Origin: a virus
DNA: 29,410 nt
Direction: 5' to 3' (one strand)
UHGV virus genome: UHGV-0009628
Part shown: positions 6,037 through 24,010 of the stretch, piece by piece
How positions within the stretch are numbered: the stretch's first letter is position 1
Layout: each line of letters begins with the position of its first letter
The notes under the pieces: generated by a model
The model's database searches: none
The model's input: the letters and a program-made list of their open reading frames with translations, nothing else
What the model was told of the DNA's origin: nothing
Translations under genes and position numbers: made by a program

Positions 6037-7167
6037 ATGAAAAAAATAACCAAGAGAGAAAGAGAGAGAGATATTTTACGATCCTATTTACATCGTACAG
6101 GAAGAGATGTTGTATCTGCAGGGCGCTCTAAGATTAATCCTATTTCAAAAGCATCAAAAATAAATCGTTGGATAAATGCGCAAATTAAAGATGGATTAAA
6201 TTGCGAAATAAGGAAAAATAGAGACCTTTTCCTTACTTTACCTAAAAAGATGAACTTTTCAAGTAATTACCATCGTACAATGCAAGCCATACAAACGATT
6301 AGGCATCTTACAGGGCGGAAGATATTTAATAACCAATGTTACCGTCTTTGTTTTGTTGACTTTTCGAAGATTGAATATATTTCTGCATCTGCCGCATTGG
6401 TATTGACCGCGGAATTATCAAAATGGGATGATTCGGTAAGGCAACGCATTCGCCCAAAAGTGAAAACGTGGAATAAAAACATACTCTCTCAATTTGATGA
6501 GTTGGGTTTTTTTGACTTATTTAGAAATAAAGATAGTTTTGAGCTTGAAAAAGAAAAGGAACCAAGTAATATCCGTTTTGTTAAGTATATGAAAGGACAT
6601 TTACATGATGATGAAAAAACTCAGCATTTAAAAAAAGAAATAAAGCGTATTGTGGGAGAAGACCTTGGTAAATGGACTTTCCTATACAGTGGTTTGTCCG
6701 AAGCTATTACAAATGTTGTTCATCATGCTTATCCAGATAATAAAGGCTATCATGAGCATGATAAAAAATGGTATTTAACTGCTTCATATGATAGTTCAAG
6801 TAGAATAATAAAAGTAGTGTTTTATGATCAAGGTATTACAATTCCTGGGTCTTTGCCGGAATCTAAACTCCATGAAAAGGTTTTAAATTACCTTTCGAAG
6901 TTACCGCTTGCAGAACGAAAAAGAGATGAACAATTGTTAAAGGCTGCAGTTGAAATCAAACGTTCTAGTACGGGGGAAGAGGATCGGGGTAAAGGCTTGC
7001 AGGACTTGTTGGAGTTCATAAAGCAACGTGGTGAAGGTTATCTTTCAATTATGAGTGGTAAAGGCCTTTACAAATACTCACAACATGATAAAAAATCTGA
7101 GGTAAAATCAGTAAGCTTCGCTCTGCCTGTTTGTGGTACACTTATAGTATGGAGTACAAAGCTATGA
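6037..7167 (+). CDS. Cargo ORF1: GHKL-superfamily ATPase/kinase-like protein (C-terminal half resembles RsbW/SpoIIAB-type anti-sigma-factor kinases), N-terminal about 200 aa unknown
   Basis: 376 aa, ATG with strong SD; about 33% GC against a GC-rich backbone. N-box-like LSEAITNVVHHAY (aa 220-232), G1-like YDQGITIPG (aa 262-270), G2-like RGKGLQDLLEF (aa 317-327). Motif-level recognition only. Confidence 0.6.
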   Translation: MKKITKRERERDILRSYLHRTGRDVVSAGRSKINPISKASKINRWINAQIKDGLNCEIRKNRDLFLTLPKKMNFSSNYHRTMQAIQTIRHLTGRKIFNNQCYRLCFVDFSKIEYISASAALVLTAELSKWDDSVRQRIRPKVKTWNKNILSQFDELGFFDLFRNKDSFELEKEKEPSNIRFVKYMKGHLHDDEKTQHLKKEIKRIVGEDLGKWTFLYSGLSEAITNVVHHAYPDNKGYHEHDKKWYLTASYDSSSRIIKVVFYDQGITIPGSLPESKLHEKVLNYLSKLPLAERKRDEQLLKAAVEIKRSSTGEEDRGKGLQDLLEFIKQRGEGYLSIMSGKGLYKYSQHDKKSEVKSVSFALPVCGTLIVWSTKL

Positions 7168-7553
7168 TTACTAGATTGGTTGCTAGCCTCATGAAAACAT
7201 TGAAGATTGGTTCAGAGTTCTCGAAAGTTCCCAGAGGCCGCTATCGTACTGACGGGACAGCAAGTGGTGAACGGTTTAGAGAAGATTTCTTAAGAAAGCG
7301 TCTAAGCTTGCTTTCTGCTGGGGAAAAATTGCAGATAGTCATCGATGATGATGTCGAAGGATATGGTTCGTCTTTTTTGGTGGAGGGCTTTGCGGGCATG
7401 GTAAAATATGGATATATGCATGCCAATGAGTTATTGTCTAAAATTGAAATTAAATATACTAATCCTGATTTTGATTTCTATAAAAAGAAAATAGAACAAT
7501 ATATCAACGAGGCGCAGTTTAATTCGAAACGATATGAGCCAACAGTCGAATAA
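7164..7553 (+). CDS. Cargo ORF2: small STAS-like (DUF4325-like) protein, candidate partner of the ORF1 kinase/ATPase
   Basis: 129 aa from ATG at 7164 (ATGA overlap with ORF1 stop, GGAG SD 10 nt upstream; track start 7131 is TTG). Segment SGERFREDFLRKRLSLLSAGEKLQIVIDDDVEGYGSSFLVEGFAGMV resembles the anti-sigma-antagonist/STAS pattern around the phospho-Ser. Confidence 0.5.
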   Translation: MITRLVASLMKTLKIGSEFSKVPRGRYRTDGTASGERFREDFLRKRLSLLSAGEKLQIVIDDDVEGYGSSFLVEGFAGMVKYGYMHANELLSKIEIKYTNPDFDFYKKKIEQYINEAQFNSKRYEPTVE

Positions 7554-8196
7554 TCCGATGTTTATTTTAGGTGAGGGTTCTGGTGAGTTCTCACCTAGTT
7601 TGCTTTTTATCAAGAAGGATAATGAAGAAGGCCTGAGTGCTACTCATGCAGTTAAGGATATTAATACGATAATTGAAGTAGCTAGTTCTAATATTGTTGA
7701 TGCAATACGGCATCCACCTGAAACGCCTATTTTATCGTCATCACTTATTACGGCTCTTATTAGTACTATTTGTGCGGCCACTGCCGCATTTGCATATAAT
7801 AAAGTCCATTGGCGTTCTGTTGTTAAACGGGAGACTAAAACCAAACTCCTGGAGAGTATTTCAGATGTGGTTAATGAGTTGCGTTCTGATGCTATTAGTT
7901 ATTGGTTGAAGGGGTATTCAAAAAAGTCGGCGAAGTCTCTCTTAGAAGAGGAAATGAGAATTAAGGCGAGTTTAAATATAATAAATTCGACTATAACAAT
8001 ATATGTTCAGCAAGAGTCGCGATGGAAAAGAAAGGATATTGAAGCTCAGTTAAGGGTTTTTCATGACGAACTTTTTGATATTATAACAGGTGATGATTTT
8101 GAGTCTCAGGCAAGGAAGCAGGATAAGGCAAAGGTTTCTGCTATTTCTACAAAGTGTGTGGCTTTTCGCGTTTTATTAAATACCATCAAGTTTTAA
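7534..8196 (+). CDS. Cargo ORF3: single-pass membrane protein, candidate effector
   Basis: 220 aa; overlaps ORF2 by 20 nt; one hydrophobic stretch PILSSSLITALISTICAATAAFAY (aa 65-88) followed by a charged, likely helical C-terminal region. No recognisable catalytic motif. Start could be 7558 instead. Confidence 0.5.
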   Translation: MSQQSNNPMFILGEGSGEFSPSLLFIKKDNEEGLSATHAVKDINTIIEVASSNIVDAIRHPPETPILSSSLITALISTICAATAAFAYNKVHWRSVVKRETKTKLLESISDVVNELRSDAISYWLKGYSKKSAKSLLEEEMRIKASLNIINSTITIYVQQESRWKRKDIEAQLRVFHDELFDIITGDDFESQARKQDKAKVSAISTKCVAFRVLLNTIKF

Positions 8197-18746: not shown

Positions 18747-19655
18747 ATGCCGATTATCGACCTGAACCAGCTACCCGCACCGGATGTGGTCGAGGAGCTG
18801 GACTTTGAAACCATTCTTGCCGAACGCAAGGCGACACTGATTTCCCTTTACCCGGAAGACCAGCAGGAGGCGGTCGCCCGTACCCTGACGCTGGAATCCG
18901 AGCCTCTCGTCAAACTGCTGGAGGAAAATGCGTATCGCGAGCTTATCTGGCGTCAGCGTGTGAATGAGGCTGCACGGGCGGTGATGCTGGCCTGTGCAGC
19001 CGGTAATGACCTTGATGTTATTGGTGCCAATTACAACACCACGCGCCTGACTATCACCCCGGCAGATGATTCGACCATCCCGCCGACACCGGCAGTGATG
19101 GAGTCTGACACTGATTATCGTCTGCGTATTCAGCAGGCGTTTGAGGGCTTAAGCGTCGCCGGGTCGGTGGGAGCCTATCAGTATCATGGTCGCAGTGCCG
19201 ACGGGCGTGTCGCGGATATCTCTGTCACCAGTCCGTCTCCGGCCTGCGTCACTATCTCTGTGCTGTCACGTGAAAATAACGGCGTCGCATCCGAAGACCT
19301 GCTGGCCGTGGTGCGTAACGCCCTTAATGGCGAGGACGTCAGGCCGGTGGCCGACCGCGTGACCGTGCAGTCTGCCGCCATTGTTGAATATCAGATAAAC
19401 GCCACGCTTTACCTTTACCCTGGTCCCGAAAGCGAACCCATCCGCGCTGCTGCCGTGAAAAAACTGGAAGCGTATATCACGGCACAGCACCGGCTGGGGC
19501 GCGACATCCGTCTGTCTGCCATTTATGCCGCTTTGCATGTGGAGGGCGTGCAGCGTGTCGAGCTGGCCGCACCACTGGCTGACATCGTGCTCAACAGTAC
19601 GCAGGCGTCTTTCTGTACCGAATACCGCGTCGTGACCGGAGGCTCGGATGAGTGA
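18747..19655 (+). CDS. J: Baseplate wedge protein J
   Basis: 302 aa, same length and position as P2 J. Confidence 0.88.
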   Translation: MPIIDLNQLPAPDVVEELDFETILAERKATLISLYPEDQQEAVARTLTLESEPLVKLLEENAYRELIWRQRVNEAARAVMLACAAGNDLDVIGANYNTTRLTITPADDSTIPPTPAVMESDTDYRLRIQQAFEGLSVAGSVGAYQYHGRSADGRVADISVTSPSPACVTISVLSRENNGVASEDLLAVVRNALNGEDVRPVADRVTVQSAAIVEYQINATLYLYPGPESEPIRAAAVKKLEAYITAQHRLGRDIRLSAIYAALHVEGVQRVELAAPLADIVLNSTQASFCTEYRVVTGGSDE

Positions 19656-20259
19656 TTCGCGTCTGCTGCCGACCGGCTCATCACCGCTTGAAATTGCTGC
19701 CGCGAAAGCCTGTGCGGAAATTGAAAAAACGCCGGTCAGTATTCGTGAGCTGTGGAACCCGGACACCTGCCCGGCAAATCTGCTGCCGTGGCTGGCGTGG
19801 GCCTTTTCGGTCGACAGGTGGGATGAAAAGTGGCCGGAAGCGACAAAACGCGCCGTTATCCGCGATGCCTATTTCATCCACTGTCATAAGGGTACTGTCG
19901 GCGCAATCCGGCGTGTTGTGGAGCCGCTCGGCTATCTGATTGAAGTGAGGGAGTGGTGGCAGCTCAACGAGGAGCCGGGGACGTTCCGTATCGTTGTTGG
20001 CGTGCTTGAGCAGGGTATTACCGAAGAAATGTATCTGGAGCTGGAACGTCTCGTTGCTGATGCAAAACCGGCGAGCCGCCATCTGACGGGACTGGCTATC
20101 AGTTTAAGTACAACCGGCAACATTTTTGCCGGAACGGGATGCTATCACGGTGACGCCCTGACGGTTTATCCCTACACCCCGGAGGCCATTATTGTCGGAG
20201 GGGATTATTTCCCGGCCTCGGTCATTCATTTAATTGATAACCTGAGAGTAAACGCATGA
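19648..20259 (+). CDS. I: Baseplate protein I
   Basis: 203 aa, between J and H as in P2; N-terminus MSDSRLLPTGSSPLE. Confidence 0.85.
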   Translation: MSDSRLLPTGSSPLEIAAAKACAEIEKTPVSIRELWNPDTCPANLLPWLAWAFSVDRWDEKWPEATKRAVIRDAYFIHCHKGTVGAIRRVVEPLGYLIEVREWWQLNEEPGTFRIVVGVLEQGITEEMYLELERLVADAKPASRHLTGLAISLSTTGNIFAGTGCYHGDALTVYPYTPEAIIVGGDYFPASVIHLIDNLRVNA

Positions 20260-22067
20260 CAGTGAAATACTACGCCATTCTGACTAATCAGGGCGCAGCA
20301 CGACTGGCTAACGCGACGATGCTCGGCAGTAAGCTGAATCTGACGCAAATGGCCGTTGGTGATGCGAATGGTGTCTTGCCGACACCAGACCCGGTACAGA
20401 CAAAACTGATTAACCAGAAACGCATTGCACCGCTGAATCTTCTGAGTGTTGACCCTAACAATCAGAGCCAGATTATTGCGGAGCAAATTATCCCTGAAAA
20501 CGAGGGAGGATTCTGGATCCGTGAGATTGGGCTTTATGATGATGAAGGCGTACTCATTGCGGTGGCGAACTGCCCGGAAACGTACAAACCGCAGTTGCAG
20601 GAAGGCAGTGGTCGTACCCAGACTATCCGCATGATTCTGGTTGTCTCGAATACCGAAGCCATCACGCTGAAAATCGATCCGTCGGTGGTACTGGCGACCC
20701 GTAAATATGTGGATGACAAAATCTCAGAACACGAACAGTCACGACGACACCCGGATGCATCGCTGACCGCAAAAGGTTTTACTCAGTTAAGCAGCGCAAC
20801 CAACAGCACGTCTGAAACACTGGCCGCAACGCCGAGAGCGGTAAAGATCGCGTATGACCTTGCTAACGGGAAATATACTGCACAGGACGCGACCACAGCG
20901 CGAAAAGGTCTTGTCCAGCTCAGTAGTGCCACCAACAGCGATTCTGAAACGCTTGCGGCAACGCCAAAGGCGGTAAAGACAGCATATGACCTTGCTAACG
21001 GGAAATATACCGCACAGGACGCGACCACAGCGCGAAAAGGTCTTGTCCAGCTCAGTAGCGCCACCAACAGCGATTCTGAAACGCTTGCGGCAACGCCAAA
21101 GGCGGTAAAGACAGCATATGACCTTGCTAACGGGAAATATACCGCACAGGACGCGACCACAGCGCGAAAAGGCCTTGTCCAGCTCAGCAGCGCCACTAAC
21201 AGCACGTCAGAAACGCAGGCTGCCACACCAAAAGCCGTGAAGGCTGTATATGACCTTGCCAATGGAAAACAACCTGCCGACGCCATACTGACCGCACTGG
21301 CAGGCCTTGCCACTGCGGCAGACAAACTTCCGTATTTTACGGGGAATGATACAGCCAGCCTGACAACCCTGACTAACGTTGGACGGAATATTCTGGATAA
21401 AGCAAGCACACAGGCGGTTATTCAATATCTTGGTCTGAGCGATGCAAGTGGATACGTTGGACGCTGGCTGAATACCCGGGTTTTCACCTCATCAGGTACG
21501 TACACCCCGACGCCAGGAACAAAACGGATCAGGGTCACAATAACGGGCGGCGGTGGCGGAGGGGGCGGCTGCAAGGCTACATCCAATAATGAAACGTTTT
21601 TCGGTGCTGGCGGTGGGGCCGGTGGAACAATAATTTCAATAATGACCCCGACACAGAATAGTTATCCAGTCACTATCGGCGCAGGTGGGGCCGGTGGTGT
21701 TAGTGCGACGAACGGCACCAGTGGCGGGAATAGCGTATTTGCATCGTTAATTGCTCCTGGTGGCGCAGGTGGCGGGAAAGTGGGAGTTACAAATACAAAC
21801 GGCGGTAACGGAGGTGTGCCGAATACTGGCGATATCCGCATCACTGGTGGAAATGGAGGCGACGGTCAGTCCGGAAATATCAGCGTCAGCGGTGAAGGCG
21901 GAACATCGTACTGGGGTGGCGGTGGACGCGCAGGCGCTGGCGGTGGCGTTAGCGGCAAGGCATATGGTTCAGGCGGAGGTGGTGCATACGATGCCGGTTA
22001 TAGCGGAACCAGTATGACGGGCGGGAAAGGCGCTGCAGGGATTTGTATTATCGAGGAGTTTGCATAA
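20256..22067 (+). CDS. H: Tail fibre protein H, with internal tandem fibre repeats and a glycine-rich distal domain
   Basis: 603 aa; conserved N-terminal baseplate-attachment region, four tandem 44-aa repeats, then a C-terminal domain dominated by GG/GGxGG runs. Confidence 0.9.
   Translation: MTVKYYAILTNQGAARLANATMLGSKLNLTQMAVGDANGVLPTPDPVQTKLINQKRIAPLNLLSVDPNNQSQIIAEQIIPENEGGFWIREIGLYDDEGVLIAVANCPETYKPQLQEGSGRTQTIRMILVVSNTEAITLKIDPSVVLATRKYVDDKISEHEQSRRHPDASLTAKGFTQLSSATNSTSETLAATPRAVKIAYDLANGKYTAQDATTARKGLVQLSSATNSDSETLAATPKAVKTAYDLANGKYTAQDATTARKGLVQLSSATNSDSETLAATPKAVKTAYDLANGKYTAQDATTARKGLVQLSSATNSTSETQAATPKAVKAVYDLANGKQPADAILTALAGLATAADKLPYFTGNDTASLTTLTNVGRNILDKASTQAVIQYLGLSDASGYVGRWLNTRVFTSSGTYTPTPGTKRIRVTITGGGGGGGGCKATSNNETFFGAGGGAGGTIISIMTPTQNSYPVTIGAGGAGGVSATNGTSGGNSVFASLIAPGGAGGGKVGVTNTNGGNGGVPNTGDIRITGGNGGDGQSGNISVSGEGGTSYWGGGGRAGAGGGVSGKAYGSGGGGAYDAGYSGTSMTGGKGAAGICIIEEFA
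20772..21299 (+). repeat. Four tandem 132-bp in-frame repeats inside H (units start 20772, 20904, 21036, 21168)
   Basis: Units 2 and 3 nearly identical at DNA level; each encodes KGLVQLSSATNSDSETLAATPKAVKTAYDLANGKYTAQDATTAR-type 44-aa tail-fibre repeats. Confidence 0.9.
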
Positions 22068-22477
22068 TGAATGCGTCATATGCAGTTATTGAAAATGGGA
22101 TGGTTGTTAATGTCATTGTCTGGGATGGTGAGGATGAATTCACTGTGCCGGATAATCTGCAGCTCATTAATATTTCTGATATCAGTGAGCAGCCCGGAAT
22201 CGGCTGGGCGTATTCAGACGGGGTATTTACTGCACCACCCACTCCGGAACGTTCTCATGATGAACTGGTAGCTGACGCTGAACAGAAAAAACAGTCGTTG
22301 ATAGACGCAGCAATGGTCAATATCAGCGTGATTCAGTTAAAGCTGCAGGCCGGGCGCAAACTGACGCAAGAAGAAACTACCCGACTTAACGTTGTGCTGG
22401 ATTATATCGACGCTGTGACGGCAACAGATACCAGCACCGCACCGGATGTCATCTGGCCTGAACTGCAGGAGGCGTAG
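22067..22477 (+). CDS. G: Tail fibre assembly chaperone
   Basis: 136 aa from ATG at 22067 (TAATG overlap with H stop; track start 22043 is TTG); directly downstream of H as in P2. Confidence 0.8.
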   Translation: MNASYAVIENGMVVNVIVWDGEDEFTVPDNLQLINISDISEQPGIGWAYSDGVFTAPPTPERSHDELVADAEQKKQSLIDAAMVNISVIQLKLQAGRKLTQEETTRLNVVLDYIDAVTATDTSTAPDVIWPELQEA

Positions 22478-22685
22478 GCCATTCAATATCTGACGTACCG
22501 GAAGTATCGGACCGCTCCGGTGCGTACAGGTAATCCAGCCACAAATTATATTGCGCCAGTACCTCAGACCTGCCGGGCTATTGCTTACTGTTCATGTATT
22601 TATTGGCCTGATTAATCAGTAGCTGTCTTTCTGGTCGTGTGGATCCTGCAAATCCTGAATGGTCGGAAATACCGCAATAAATACA

Positions 22686-22710
22686 GGCGGGCTGATTGCC
22701 CGCCTTTTTT
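22686..22710 (+). terminator. Rho-independent terminator ending the V-to-G tail operon
   Basis: GGCGGGC-TGATT-GCCCGCC hairpin followed by TTTTTT on the plus strand. Confidence 0.8.
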
Positions 22711-22807
22711 ATCTGTTGTTTCATCCCCTGACCAGCCAGGACAAATAGCATCTCATGCCCTGCACAACTGAAAATACCACTCACCCATTAACCACGGAGT
22801 TAAACGG

Positions 22808-23998
22808 ATGAGTGACTATCATCACGGCGTGCAGGTGCTGGAGATTAACGACGGCACACGCGTCATTTCCACCGTATCCACTGCCATTGTCGGCATGGTC
22901 TGTACGGCCAGCGATGCGGATGCGGAAACCTTCCCCCTCAATAAACCGGTGCTGATTACCAATGTGCAGAGCGCAATTGCAAAGGCCGGTAAAAAAGGCA
23001 CGCTGGCGGCGTCGTTGCAGGCCATCGCTGACCAGTCAAAACCGGTCACCGTTGTTGTACGTGTGGAAGACGGCACCGGCGAAGACGAAGAAACGAAACT
23101 TGCGCAGACCGTTTCCAATATCATCGGCACCACCGACGAAAACGGTCAGTACACCGGACTGAAAGCCCTGCTGGCGGCGGAGTCGGTAACCGGTGTTAAA
23201 CCGCGTATTCTCGGCGTGCCGGGACTGGACACCAAAGAGGTGGCTGTTGCACTGGCATCAGTCTGTCAGAAGCTGCGCGCTTTCGGATATATCAGTGCAT
23301 GGGGCTGTAAGACCATTTCCGAGGTGAAAGCCTACCGCCAGAATTTCAGCCAGCGTGAGCTGATGGTCATCTGGCCGGATTTCCTCGCATGGGATACGGT
23401 CACCAGTACCACCGCCACCACGTATGCCACCGCCCGTGCGCTGGGCATGCGCGCTAAAATCGACCAGGAGCAGGGCTGGCATAAAACGCTGTCCAATGTC
23501 GGGGTGAACGGTGTTACCGGCATCAGCGCATCCGTCTTCTGGGATTTGCAGGAGTCCGGCACCGATGCTGACCTGCTTAACGAGTCAGGCGTCACTACGC
23601 TGATTCGCCGCGACGGTTTCCGCTTCTGGGGTAACCGTACCTGCTCCGATGACCCGCTGTTCCTCTTTGAAAACTACACCCGCACCGCGCAGGTGCTGGC
23701 CGATACGATGGCTGAGGCGCACATGTGGGCGGTGGACAAGCCCATCACCGCAACGCTGATTCGCGACATCGTTGACGGCATCAATGCCAAATTCCGTGAG
23801 CTGAAAACAAACGGCTATATCGTGGATGCGACCTGCTGGTTCAGCGAAGAATCCAACGATGCGGAAACCCTCAAGGCCGGAAAACTGTATATCGACTACG
23901 ACTATACCCCGGTGCCTCCTCTCGAAAACCTGACCCTGCGCCAGCGTATCACCGATAAATATCTGGCAAATCTGGTCACCTCGGTTAACAGCAATTAA
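22808..23998 (+). CDS. FI: Contractile tail sheath protein
   Basis: 396 aa, same length and position as P2 FI. Confidence 0.92.
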   Translation: MSDYHHGVQVLEINDGTRVISTVSTAIVGMVCTASDADAETFPLNKPVLITNVQSAIAKAGKKGTLAASLQAIADQSKPVTVVVRVEDGTGEDEETKLAQTVSNIIGTTDENGQYTGLKALLAAESVTGVKPRILGVPGLDTKEVAVALASVCQKLRAFGYISAWGCKTISEVKAYRQNFSQRELMVIWPDFLAWDTVTSTTATTYATARALGMRAKIDQEQGWHKTLSNVGVNGVTGISASVFWDLQESGTDADLLNESGVTTLIRRDGFRFWGNRTCSDDPLFLFENYTRTAQVLADTMAEAHMWAVDKPITATLIRDIVDGINAKFRELKTNGYIVDATCWFSEESNDAETLKAGKLYIDYDYTPVPPLENLTLRQRITDKYLANLVTSVNSN

Positions 23999-24010
23999 GG
24001 AGCCTGACCG

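Follow-up and report, generated by a model that had tools for sequence, protein, structure and literature searches.

The viral genome UHGV-0009628, analysed here as one stretch of 29,410 nucleotides (the window), contains at positions 20772–21299 a run of 132-bp (44-codon) units, arranged in tandem and in frame within gene H of a P2-like prophage, and the question that this locus raises is what these repeats encode and whether their number is a real and changing property of the gene. The open reading frame that carries the array (20256–22067, plus strand) encodes a protein of 603 amino acids. Its first 150 residues (20256–20705) form the baseplate-proximal, N-terminal tail-collar fibre domain PF12571 (209.5 bits, E = 2.9e-62), and its distal part (aa 412–600; 21489–22055) is a glycine-rich domain that matches PF21722 (Gly_rich_2; 50.5 bits, cut-off 24.3). 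Between the two lie the repeats, in which Pfam detects PF03406 (Phage_fiber_2) four times (262.1 bits, cut-off 22; E = 1.2e-79), the best match spanning profile positions 1–41 of 42. Compared with the tail fibre families of PHROG, H reached E-values down to 8e-272. Public proteins from E. coli and Shigella that are 99% identical to H carry the annotation 'tail fiber protein', and the 2222-bp stretch recurs with 99.1% identity in E. coli MS 124-1, where PGAP annotates this coding sequence too.

The neighbouring genes fit this picture. Upstream of H, the Pfam families Baseplate_J and Tail_P2_I mark genes J (18747–19655) and I (19648–20259). Downstream follows a tail fibre assembly (chaperone) gene of 136 aa (22067–22477, plus strand, in an open reading frame from 22043) with a PF02413 (Caudo_TAP) domain and a match to PHROG 188 (2e-30). 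Its ATG at 22067 overlaps the stop codon of H (TAATG) and is preceded by GAGGAG 8 nt upstream; the same 136-aa product was called by another gene caller in the related draft genome L010, and it is partial according to PGAP. On the opposite strand, a second tail fibre assembly gene, inverted, is represented at 22449–22559 by a C-terminal fragment of 36 aa (Caudo_TAP profile positions 101–131, E = 5e-6), and PGAP has annotated a pseudogene at the equivalent place. A terminator-like hairpin with an 8-bp stem containing seven GC pairs, followed by TTTTTT, lies at 22685–22712 (plus strand) at the end of the V-to-tfa operon; P2 has an annotated terminator after G at the equivalent place. Next comes the tail sheath gene FI (22808–23998, with the Pfam sheath domain). 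The gene order J-I-H-assembly gene-FI matches the order J-I-H-G-FI of P2, and the integrase, gpA and the remainder of the window are likewise consistent with a P2-like prophage. Three accessory open reading frames in other parts of the prophage were scanned with PADLOC and Pfam, with no informative result. Taken together, domains, neighbours and annotated public relatives show that the initial annotation was right to assign the reading frame as tail fibre gene H.

H carries PF12571 and is placed after J and I and before the assembly and sheath genes, as expected of a P2-type gpH. H and P2 gpH itself (AAD03286.1) have the same type of N-terminal domain, stand in the order J-I-H-G, begin their repeats at residue ∼173–174 and hold a KQP.DA.LTALAGLATAAD...YLGL module. 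P2 gpH differs from H in having two units, in the additional segment that separates its repeats from the KQP module, and in its unrelated distal end. In H this linker module (KQPADAILTALAGLATAADKLPYFTGND...YLGL; aa 339–395, 21270–21440, plus strand) directly follows the array, and the motif is also found in the translations of P2 and Wphi gpH. It sits in a more distal part of P2 gpH. Residues 359–396 of the linker have tblastn matches of 59–74% in the H genes of many P2-like phages; when aa 340–603 were used as the query, P2-like H genes were matched only over the 38–44 aa of the linker. The distal receptor-binding part of P2 was not found in H, whose distal 200 aa are Gly_rich_2, and the sole tblastn match of this glycine-rich domain in the phage collection was the tail fibre of the jumbo phage Goslar. 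From its position, the domain is presumed to be the receptor-binding end. Judged by its N-terminus and its position, H is an orthologue of P2 gpH with a different distal module. Other phages of this group vary in the same region: Wphi gpH has two units with the same start residue as P2 gpH, and the peduoviruses NC_070905 and vB_EcoM-12474III have four.

The array itself is confined and regular. Tandem Repeats Finder, applied to 19000–24000, reported only one array in this region (20793–21259), with a period of 132, 3.5 copies, 89% matches, no indels and a score of 703, and an independent seed-and-extend search found a 235-nt segment in three copies, at intervals of 132 nt, between 20771 and 21269. 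The units begin at 20772, 20904, 21036 and 21168, all in frame with the reading frame of H, corresponding to aa 173, 217, 261 and 305 at a spacing of 44 aa. They are not equally related to each other. Units 2 (20904–21035, aa 217–260) and 3 (21036–21167, aa 261–304), the inner ones, agree in 131 of 132 nucleotides and in all 44 residues upon pairwise comparison, the sole difference being a synonymous one (T at 20927, C at 21059). Unit 1 (20772–20903, aa 173–216), which is present in every allele examined, shows 83–84% nucleotide identity and 39/44 identical residues to either of them, and unit 4, beginning at 21168, only 67–70% and 31–33/44 to the other units. At lag 132, exact direct repeats extend over as much as 113, 47 and 26 nt, far above chance.

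Four near-identical units over 20772–21299, encoding 44-aa fibre repeats and with copies 2 and 3 apart by a base or two, had been described in the initial annotation. The in-frame 132-bp array, the four PF03406 matches and the closeness of the two inner copies all agree with this description, which fails at its far end, where unit 4 is diverged and partial. Its homology to the other units stops after the first ∼34 codons, at ...DLANGK, so that the repeat part of unit 4 covers aa 305–338 (21168–21269). Self-identity at a period of 132, which sets in at ∼20755–20770, is lost at ∼21130 + 132, i.e. by ∼21265, indicating that the last ∼30 nt of the supposed fourth unit (21270–21299, encoding QPADAILTAL) belong to the next module and lie outside the repeat. 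The length of the array is better given as ∼3.8 units, although 'four units' is a fair description.

As repeats of a tail fibre, these units are ordinary and already catalogued. Their score exceeds the gathering cut-off of PF03406 ('Phage tail fibre repeat', InterPro IPR005068), each of the four covers nearly the whole length of the model, and, in keeping with the family, they are repeats some 40 residues long within a phage tail fibre protein; annotated sequences that are nearly identical are publicly available. PF03406 is given as a tail-fibre domain in Table 1 of PMC3368898, and in the literature a contact-based (trRosetta) model of the family has been compared with a homology model. Searching 1.84 billion representative proteins with one 44-aa unit yielded 1402 clusters with E-values no higher than 0.001, in whose proteins between 2 and 19 stretches were matched. 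The close relatives richest in repeats have 10–12 units, in which 44 and 56 aa alternate, behind several unrelated N-termini, and distant fibres reach about 12–19 units. Compared with other PF03406 proteins, which mix 44- and 56-aa units and go up to 11–19 copies, the array in H is short and entirely of the 44-aa type; its four copies are mid-range within the family and unremarkable.

A single unit of the same repeat is present in the tail fibre S (gp49) of phage Mu (PDB 5yvq, 9ki1 and 8ju3), whose residues 107–151 align with H 251–295 (E = 1e-7) and which was the only relative found in a search of PDB sequences. In the cryo-EM study of Mu (PMC11915804), the fibre is a trimer on the simple baseplate of a contractile tail, and the model of the fibre is restricted to its N-terminus. 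Apart from the single unit, S differs from H in its N-terminus and in its distal domain. Variation in frame by whole periods has been described for the collagen-like and coiled-coil shafts of E. coli O157 prophage fibres (PMC3368898), where the periods measure 3 or 7 residues as compared to the 44-residue module of H.

The opposite strand of the array holds a 208-aa open reading frame with a GTG start (20783–21409, minus strand), which the initial annotation had dismissed as spurious, a view that we share: it is almost certainly not a gene. The frame is long and open, and a PHROG search with its translation gave matches to three families of unknown function (best phrog_26766, E = 3.7e-28), which means that equivalent frames have been called in other phage genomes. 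Such matches are, however, also expected if conserved sense DNA was mis-called elsewhere, and the openness of the frame follows from the repeats, since one unit is free of stop codons in two antisense frames. About 84% of the frame lies within the repeats and the array bounds it, and its translation is periodic at 44 aa (114/165 identities at lag 44). The GTG lacks an upstream Shine-Dalgarno sequence, the translation reaches the cut-off of no Pfam family, and PGAP annotates no such gene in four relatives. Moreover, the same substitutions between units change more amino acids in the antisense than in the sense translation (8 versus 5, 16 versus 13 and 13 versus 11). A real gene embedded antisense in H is, on this evidence, extremely improbable.

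We then asked how many units related prophages carry. The H coding sequence of complete E. coli chromosomes measures 1548, 1680 or 1812 bp, and these alleles are composed of units 1 and 4, units 1, 3 and 4, or units 1, 2, 3 and 4, respectively. They vary by 0, 1 or 2 inner units while the diverged outer units are constant, and their flanks are 93–99% identical to the window. Unit 3 of the window matches, in 132/132 nucleotides, the one inner unit of a three-copy allele (L002) as well as each of the two inner units of a four-copy allele (L001). Six complete chromosomes (H31-34, H37 and H38) are colinear with the whole 2222-bp query at four-unit length, the composition of the units having been examined in one of them, L001. 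Of the best 120 protein clusters, 98 are of the three-unit and 22 of the four-unit type; on chromosome-scale contigs, five four-copy and 14 three-copy clusters were found. The presence of both states on chromosome-scale contigs indicates that the polymorphism is not merely an effect of draft assemblies.

Several of these alleles are otherwise indistinguishable. Eleven of the 22 four-copy sequences (21 clusters and the query) each have a three-copy twin that agrees with them in all 427 non-repeat columns, and a parsimony count on a neighbour-joining tree requires at least 19 changes of state. The clearest case is the pair formed by L012 (CFS3246, a complete chromosome with four units) and L010 (three units), which align over ∼7.7 kb with no mismatch and one gap of 132 bp; L010 is a draft assembly (249-kb contig), so its three-unit state may reflect a collapse. 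Alleles that differ by exact units in otherwise identical DNA make recent gain or loss of units well supported, and near-identical adjacent copies together with exact whole-unit differences between alleles are what a recently active tandem duplication would leave, with the caveat that L010 is a draft. The proneness to gain and loss of units that had been predicted from the first reading is thereby supported, and the comparison of copy number among related prophages that it had proposed gave two, three or four units differing by the inner unit.

No allele with five or more units was seen in this H lineage. The 2076-bp alleles, which we had initially read as six-copy alleles from match lengths of 2486 versus 2222 bp, consist upon alignment of three units and an insert, an unrelated 132-aa domain placed after ...VIQY, downstream of the units. 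Two alleles of 615 aa in the same lineage hold one 56-aa variant unit with an HTH motif. We also considered a phase-variable (contingency) locus and rejected it, as two-, three- and four-unit alleles are all in frame and lead into the same downstream protein. Because 132 nt equal 44 codons and the frame is kept, the variation is one of length and not of on/off switching.

We consider it very probable that the array consists of PF03406 shaft modules of a P2-like gpH, the units of which have been gained and lost by slippage or recombination, giving rise to the two-, three- and four-unit alleles. The repeats would form part of the proximal shaft of a trimeric gpH, between the baseplate-attached N-terminal domain and the glycine-rich distal domain, and each additional unit would be expected to lengthen this shaft. 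Units 1 and 4 are old, diverged copies, and units 2 and 3 arose very recently by duplication of a single inner unit; with identities of 67–84%, the age of the outer units implies that most of the array has been stable on the time scale sampled. Slippage and unequal recombination at tandem repeats of such size are established in E. coli. Near-perfect direct repeats of at least 113 nt could allow replication slippage or unequal homologous recombination here as well, which we suggest as the mechanism from the sequences of the units; each event would add or remove exactly one 132-bp unit and keep the frame, and the prophage population would thus come to hold H alleles with two, three or four units, all of which probably make working fibres. 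An AlphaFold2 model of the H monomer, built on a shallow alignment of 15 sequences, was unusable (mean pLDDT 32.7, pTM 0.22).

This explanation has to be weighed against the suspicion that the differences in copy number are artefactual, either because the fourth unit of the window was over-expanded or because the three-copy alleles are collapsed, so that no real polymorphism exists. For units that differ by 0–1 nt, a draft and a complete genome that are 100% identical except for one unit, such as L010 and L012, present exactly the pattern of a collapse, and the zero-difference three-copy twins of half of the four-copy sequences point the same way; for individual draft twins, collapse of units 2 and 3 could indeed explain some of the three-copy states. 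As a general account it nevertheless seems very unlikely to us. The four-unit length recurs in the six complete chromosomes that are colinear over the full query, three- and two-copy alleles are likewise present in complete chromosomes, and the bases at 20927 and 21059 tell units 2 and 3 of the window apart. Four-copy clusters are not rarer on chromosome-scale contigs (5/19) than among the rest (16/100), and the flanks of the two-copy allele differ by 5–7% from the window, which identifies this allele as an independent lineage.

Another reading deserves more weight, namely that the repeats serve mainly as recombination linkers for the swapping of distal receptor-binding modules and that copy number is a by-product of exchange between phages. 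Conserved motifs in fibre genes were reportedly recognized as recombination linkers for swaps of receptor-binding modules by Haggård-Ljungquist and Sandmeier in the 1990s. H itself is mosaic in this manner: nucleotides 1–461 are 96–97% identical to several P2-like phages, whose matches end there, nucleotides 451–999 are 87–90% identical to P2 and Yersinia phages, and for the remainder of the gene no DNA-level match to a sequenced phage was obtained. In P2, 12474III and the window, this N-terminus and the repeats lead into unrelated distal parts; the last unit ends at different points (after AVK, AYD and ANGK), and repeats of this type are attached to several unrelated N-termini. The 615-aa alleles with their different 56-aa variant unit, and the otherwise similar allele with an unrelated 132-aa domain further downstream, are also in line with exchange of this kind. 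Yet the linker reading leaves unexplained why units 2 and 3 are identical in 131 of 132 nucleotides and why loci identical over 7.7 kb differ by one unit, both of which indicate a local event, and as the main explanation we hold it to be possible but doubtful. A linker role is compatible with local slippage and is an added role more than a replacement for it. Going beyond gain and loss of shaft units as such, the number of units might be a fast-evolving length dial that matches the reach of the fibre to the thickness of O-antigen or capsule. Slippage at the inner units would then generate fibres of varied reach, selection would favour those that let the glycine-rich tip arrive at its receptor, and the at least 19 apparently independent changes between three and four units would be a trace of selection and not of neutral noise or assembly error; we regard this proposal as unlikely.

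Our search of the literature on PF03406, on the repeats of P2 gpH and on the fibres of P2-like prophages returned no study of copy-number variation, and what is new here is so only mildly: a clean record of prophages, otherwise nearly identical, with 0, 1 or 2 copies of the inner unit. The finding has little importance beyond annotation hygiene, where its consequences are practical ones. Short-read assemblies are no reliable source for the copy number in H, the antisense reading frame should stay unannotated, and some PHROG families of 'unknown function' probably derive from antisense mis-calls of this kind. Those who engineer or compare P2-type fibres can regard alleles that differ by whole 44-aa units as natural variants, presumably functional ones. 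If it were true that the length of the fibre is tuned to the thickness of the host surface, this would be a modest but useful gain for host-range biology.

The distal part of the tail fibre protein H is formed by a glycine-rich PF21722 domain (21489-22055, + strand), within which residues 431-438 are encoded by eight consecutive glycine codons. Comparison of this domain with 50,697 phage records revealed a match to the tail fibre of the jumbo phage Goslar (72.6%, with 80% of the query covered; E-value 5e-11) and to no other entry.

A sister allele of H, L003 (NZ_CP158351.1; 501-2573), harbors an additional domain of 132 amino acids that separates the linker from the glycine-rich domain, the insertion point being located between the H residues equivalent to residues 391 and 392 of the window. 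Judged by eye, this inserted domain is similar to the distal H regions of the peduoviruses vB_EcoM-12474III and NC_070905. Its coding sequence of 396 bp corresponds to three times 132 bp, and while this agreement with the size of the fibre repeat unit is coincidental, the insert thereby mimics three additional repeat units when alleles are compared by length. In the complete genome NZ_CM128592.1, an IS1A element is annotated in the region of H and the tail fibre assembly gene of a prophage that is otherwise 98% identical.

On the minus strand, translation of the fibre repeats (20783-21409) yields matches to phrog_26766, phrog_24241 and phrog_10142, all three of which are PHROG families of unknown function. 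These families were probably built from mis-called antisense ORFs in the PF03406 arrays of other phages.

Downstream of H, the tail fibre assembly gene tfa (22067-22477, + strand) is labeled by PGAP in relatives as 'partial, missing N-terminus'. The ATG at position 22067 shares bases with the stop codon of H (TAATG) and is preceded by GAGGAG 8 nt upstream, and the 136-aa product read from this start was also called by another gene caller and matches PHROG 188. Probably, tfa is an intact, short gene rather than a pseudogene. A second tail fibre assembly gene is represented by a C-terminal fragment of 36 aa (22449-22559, - strand), which PGAP annotates as a pseudogene in relatives. The fragment is oriented tail-to-tail with the intact tfa, overlaps its end and aligns to positions 101-131 of the Caudo_TAP profile. 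It looks like what remains of a fibre cassette, either an alternative or an invertible one; no invertase gene was found nearby.

Three plus-strand ORFs (6037-8196) are flanked by the replication gene A and the portal gene: 6037-7167 (376 aa), 7131-7553 (140 aa) and 7534-8196 (220 aa). None of them was assigned to a PADLOC family, and the Pfam scan of all three returned nothing except a borderline match of the middle ORF to the STAS-like DUF4325 (23.8 bits versus a cut-off of 23). In P2, the accessory genes tin and old occupy this interval, and the three ORFs are possible cargo or defence genes.
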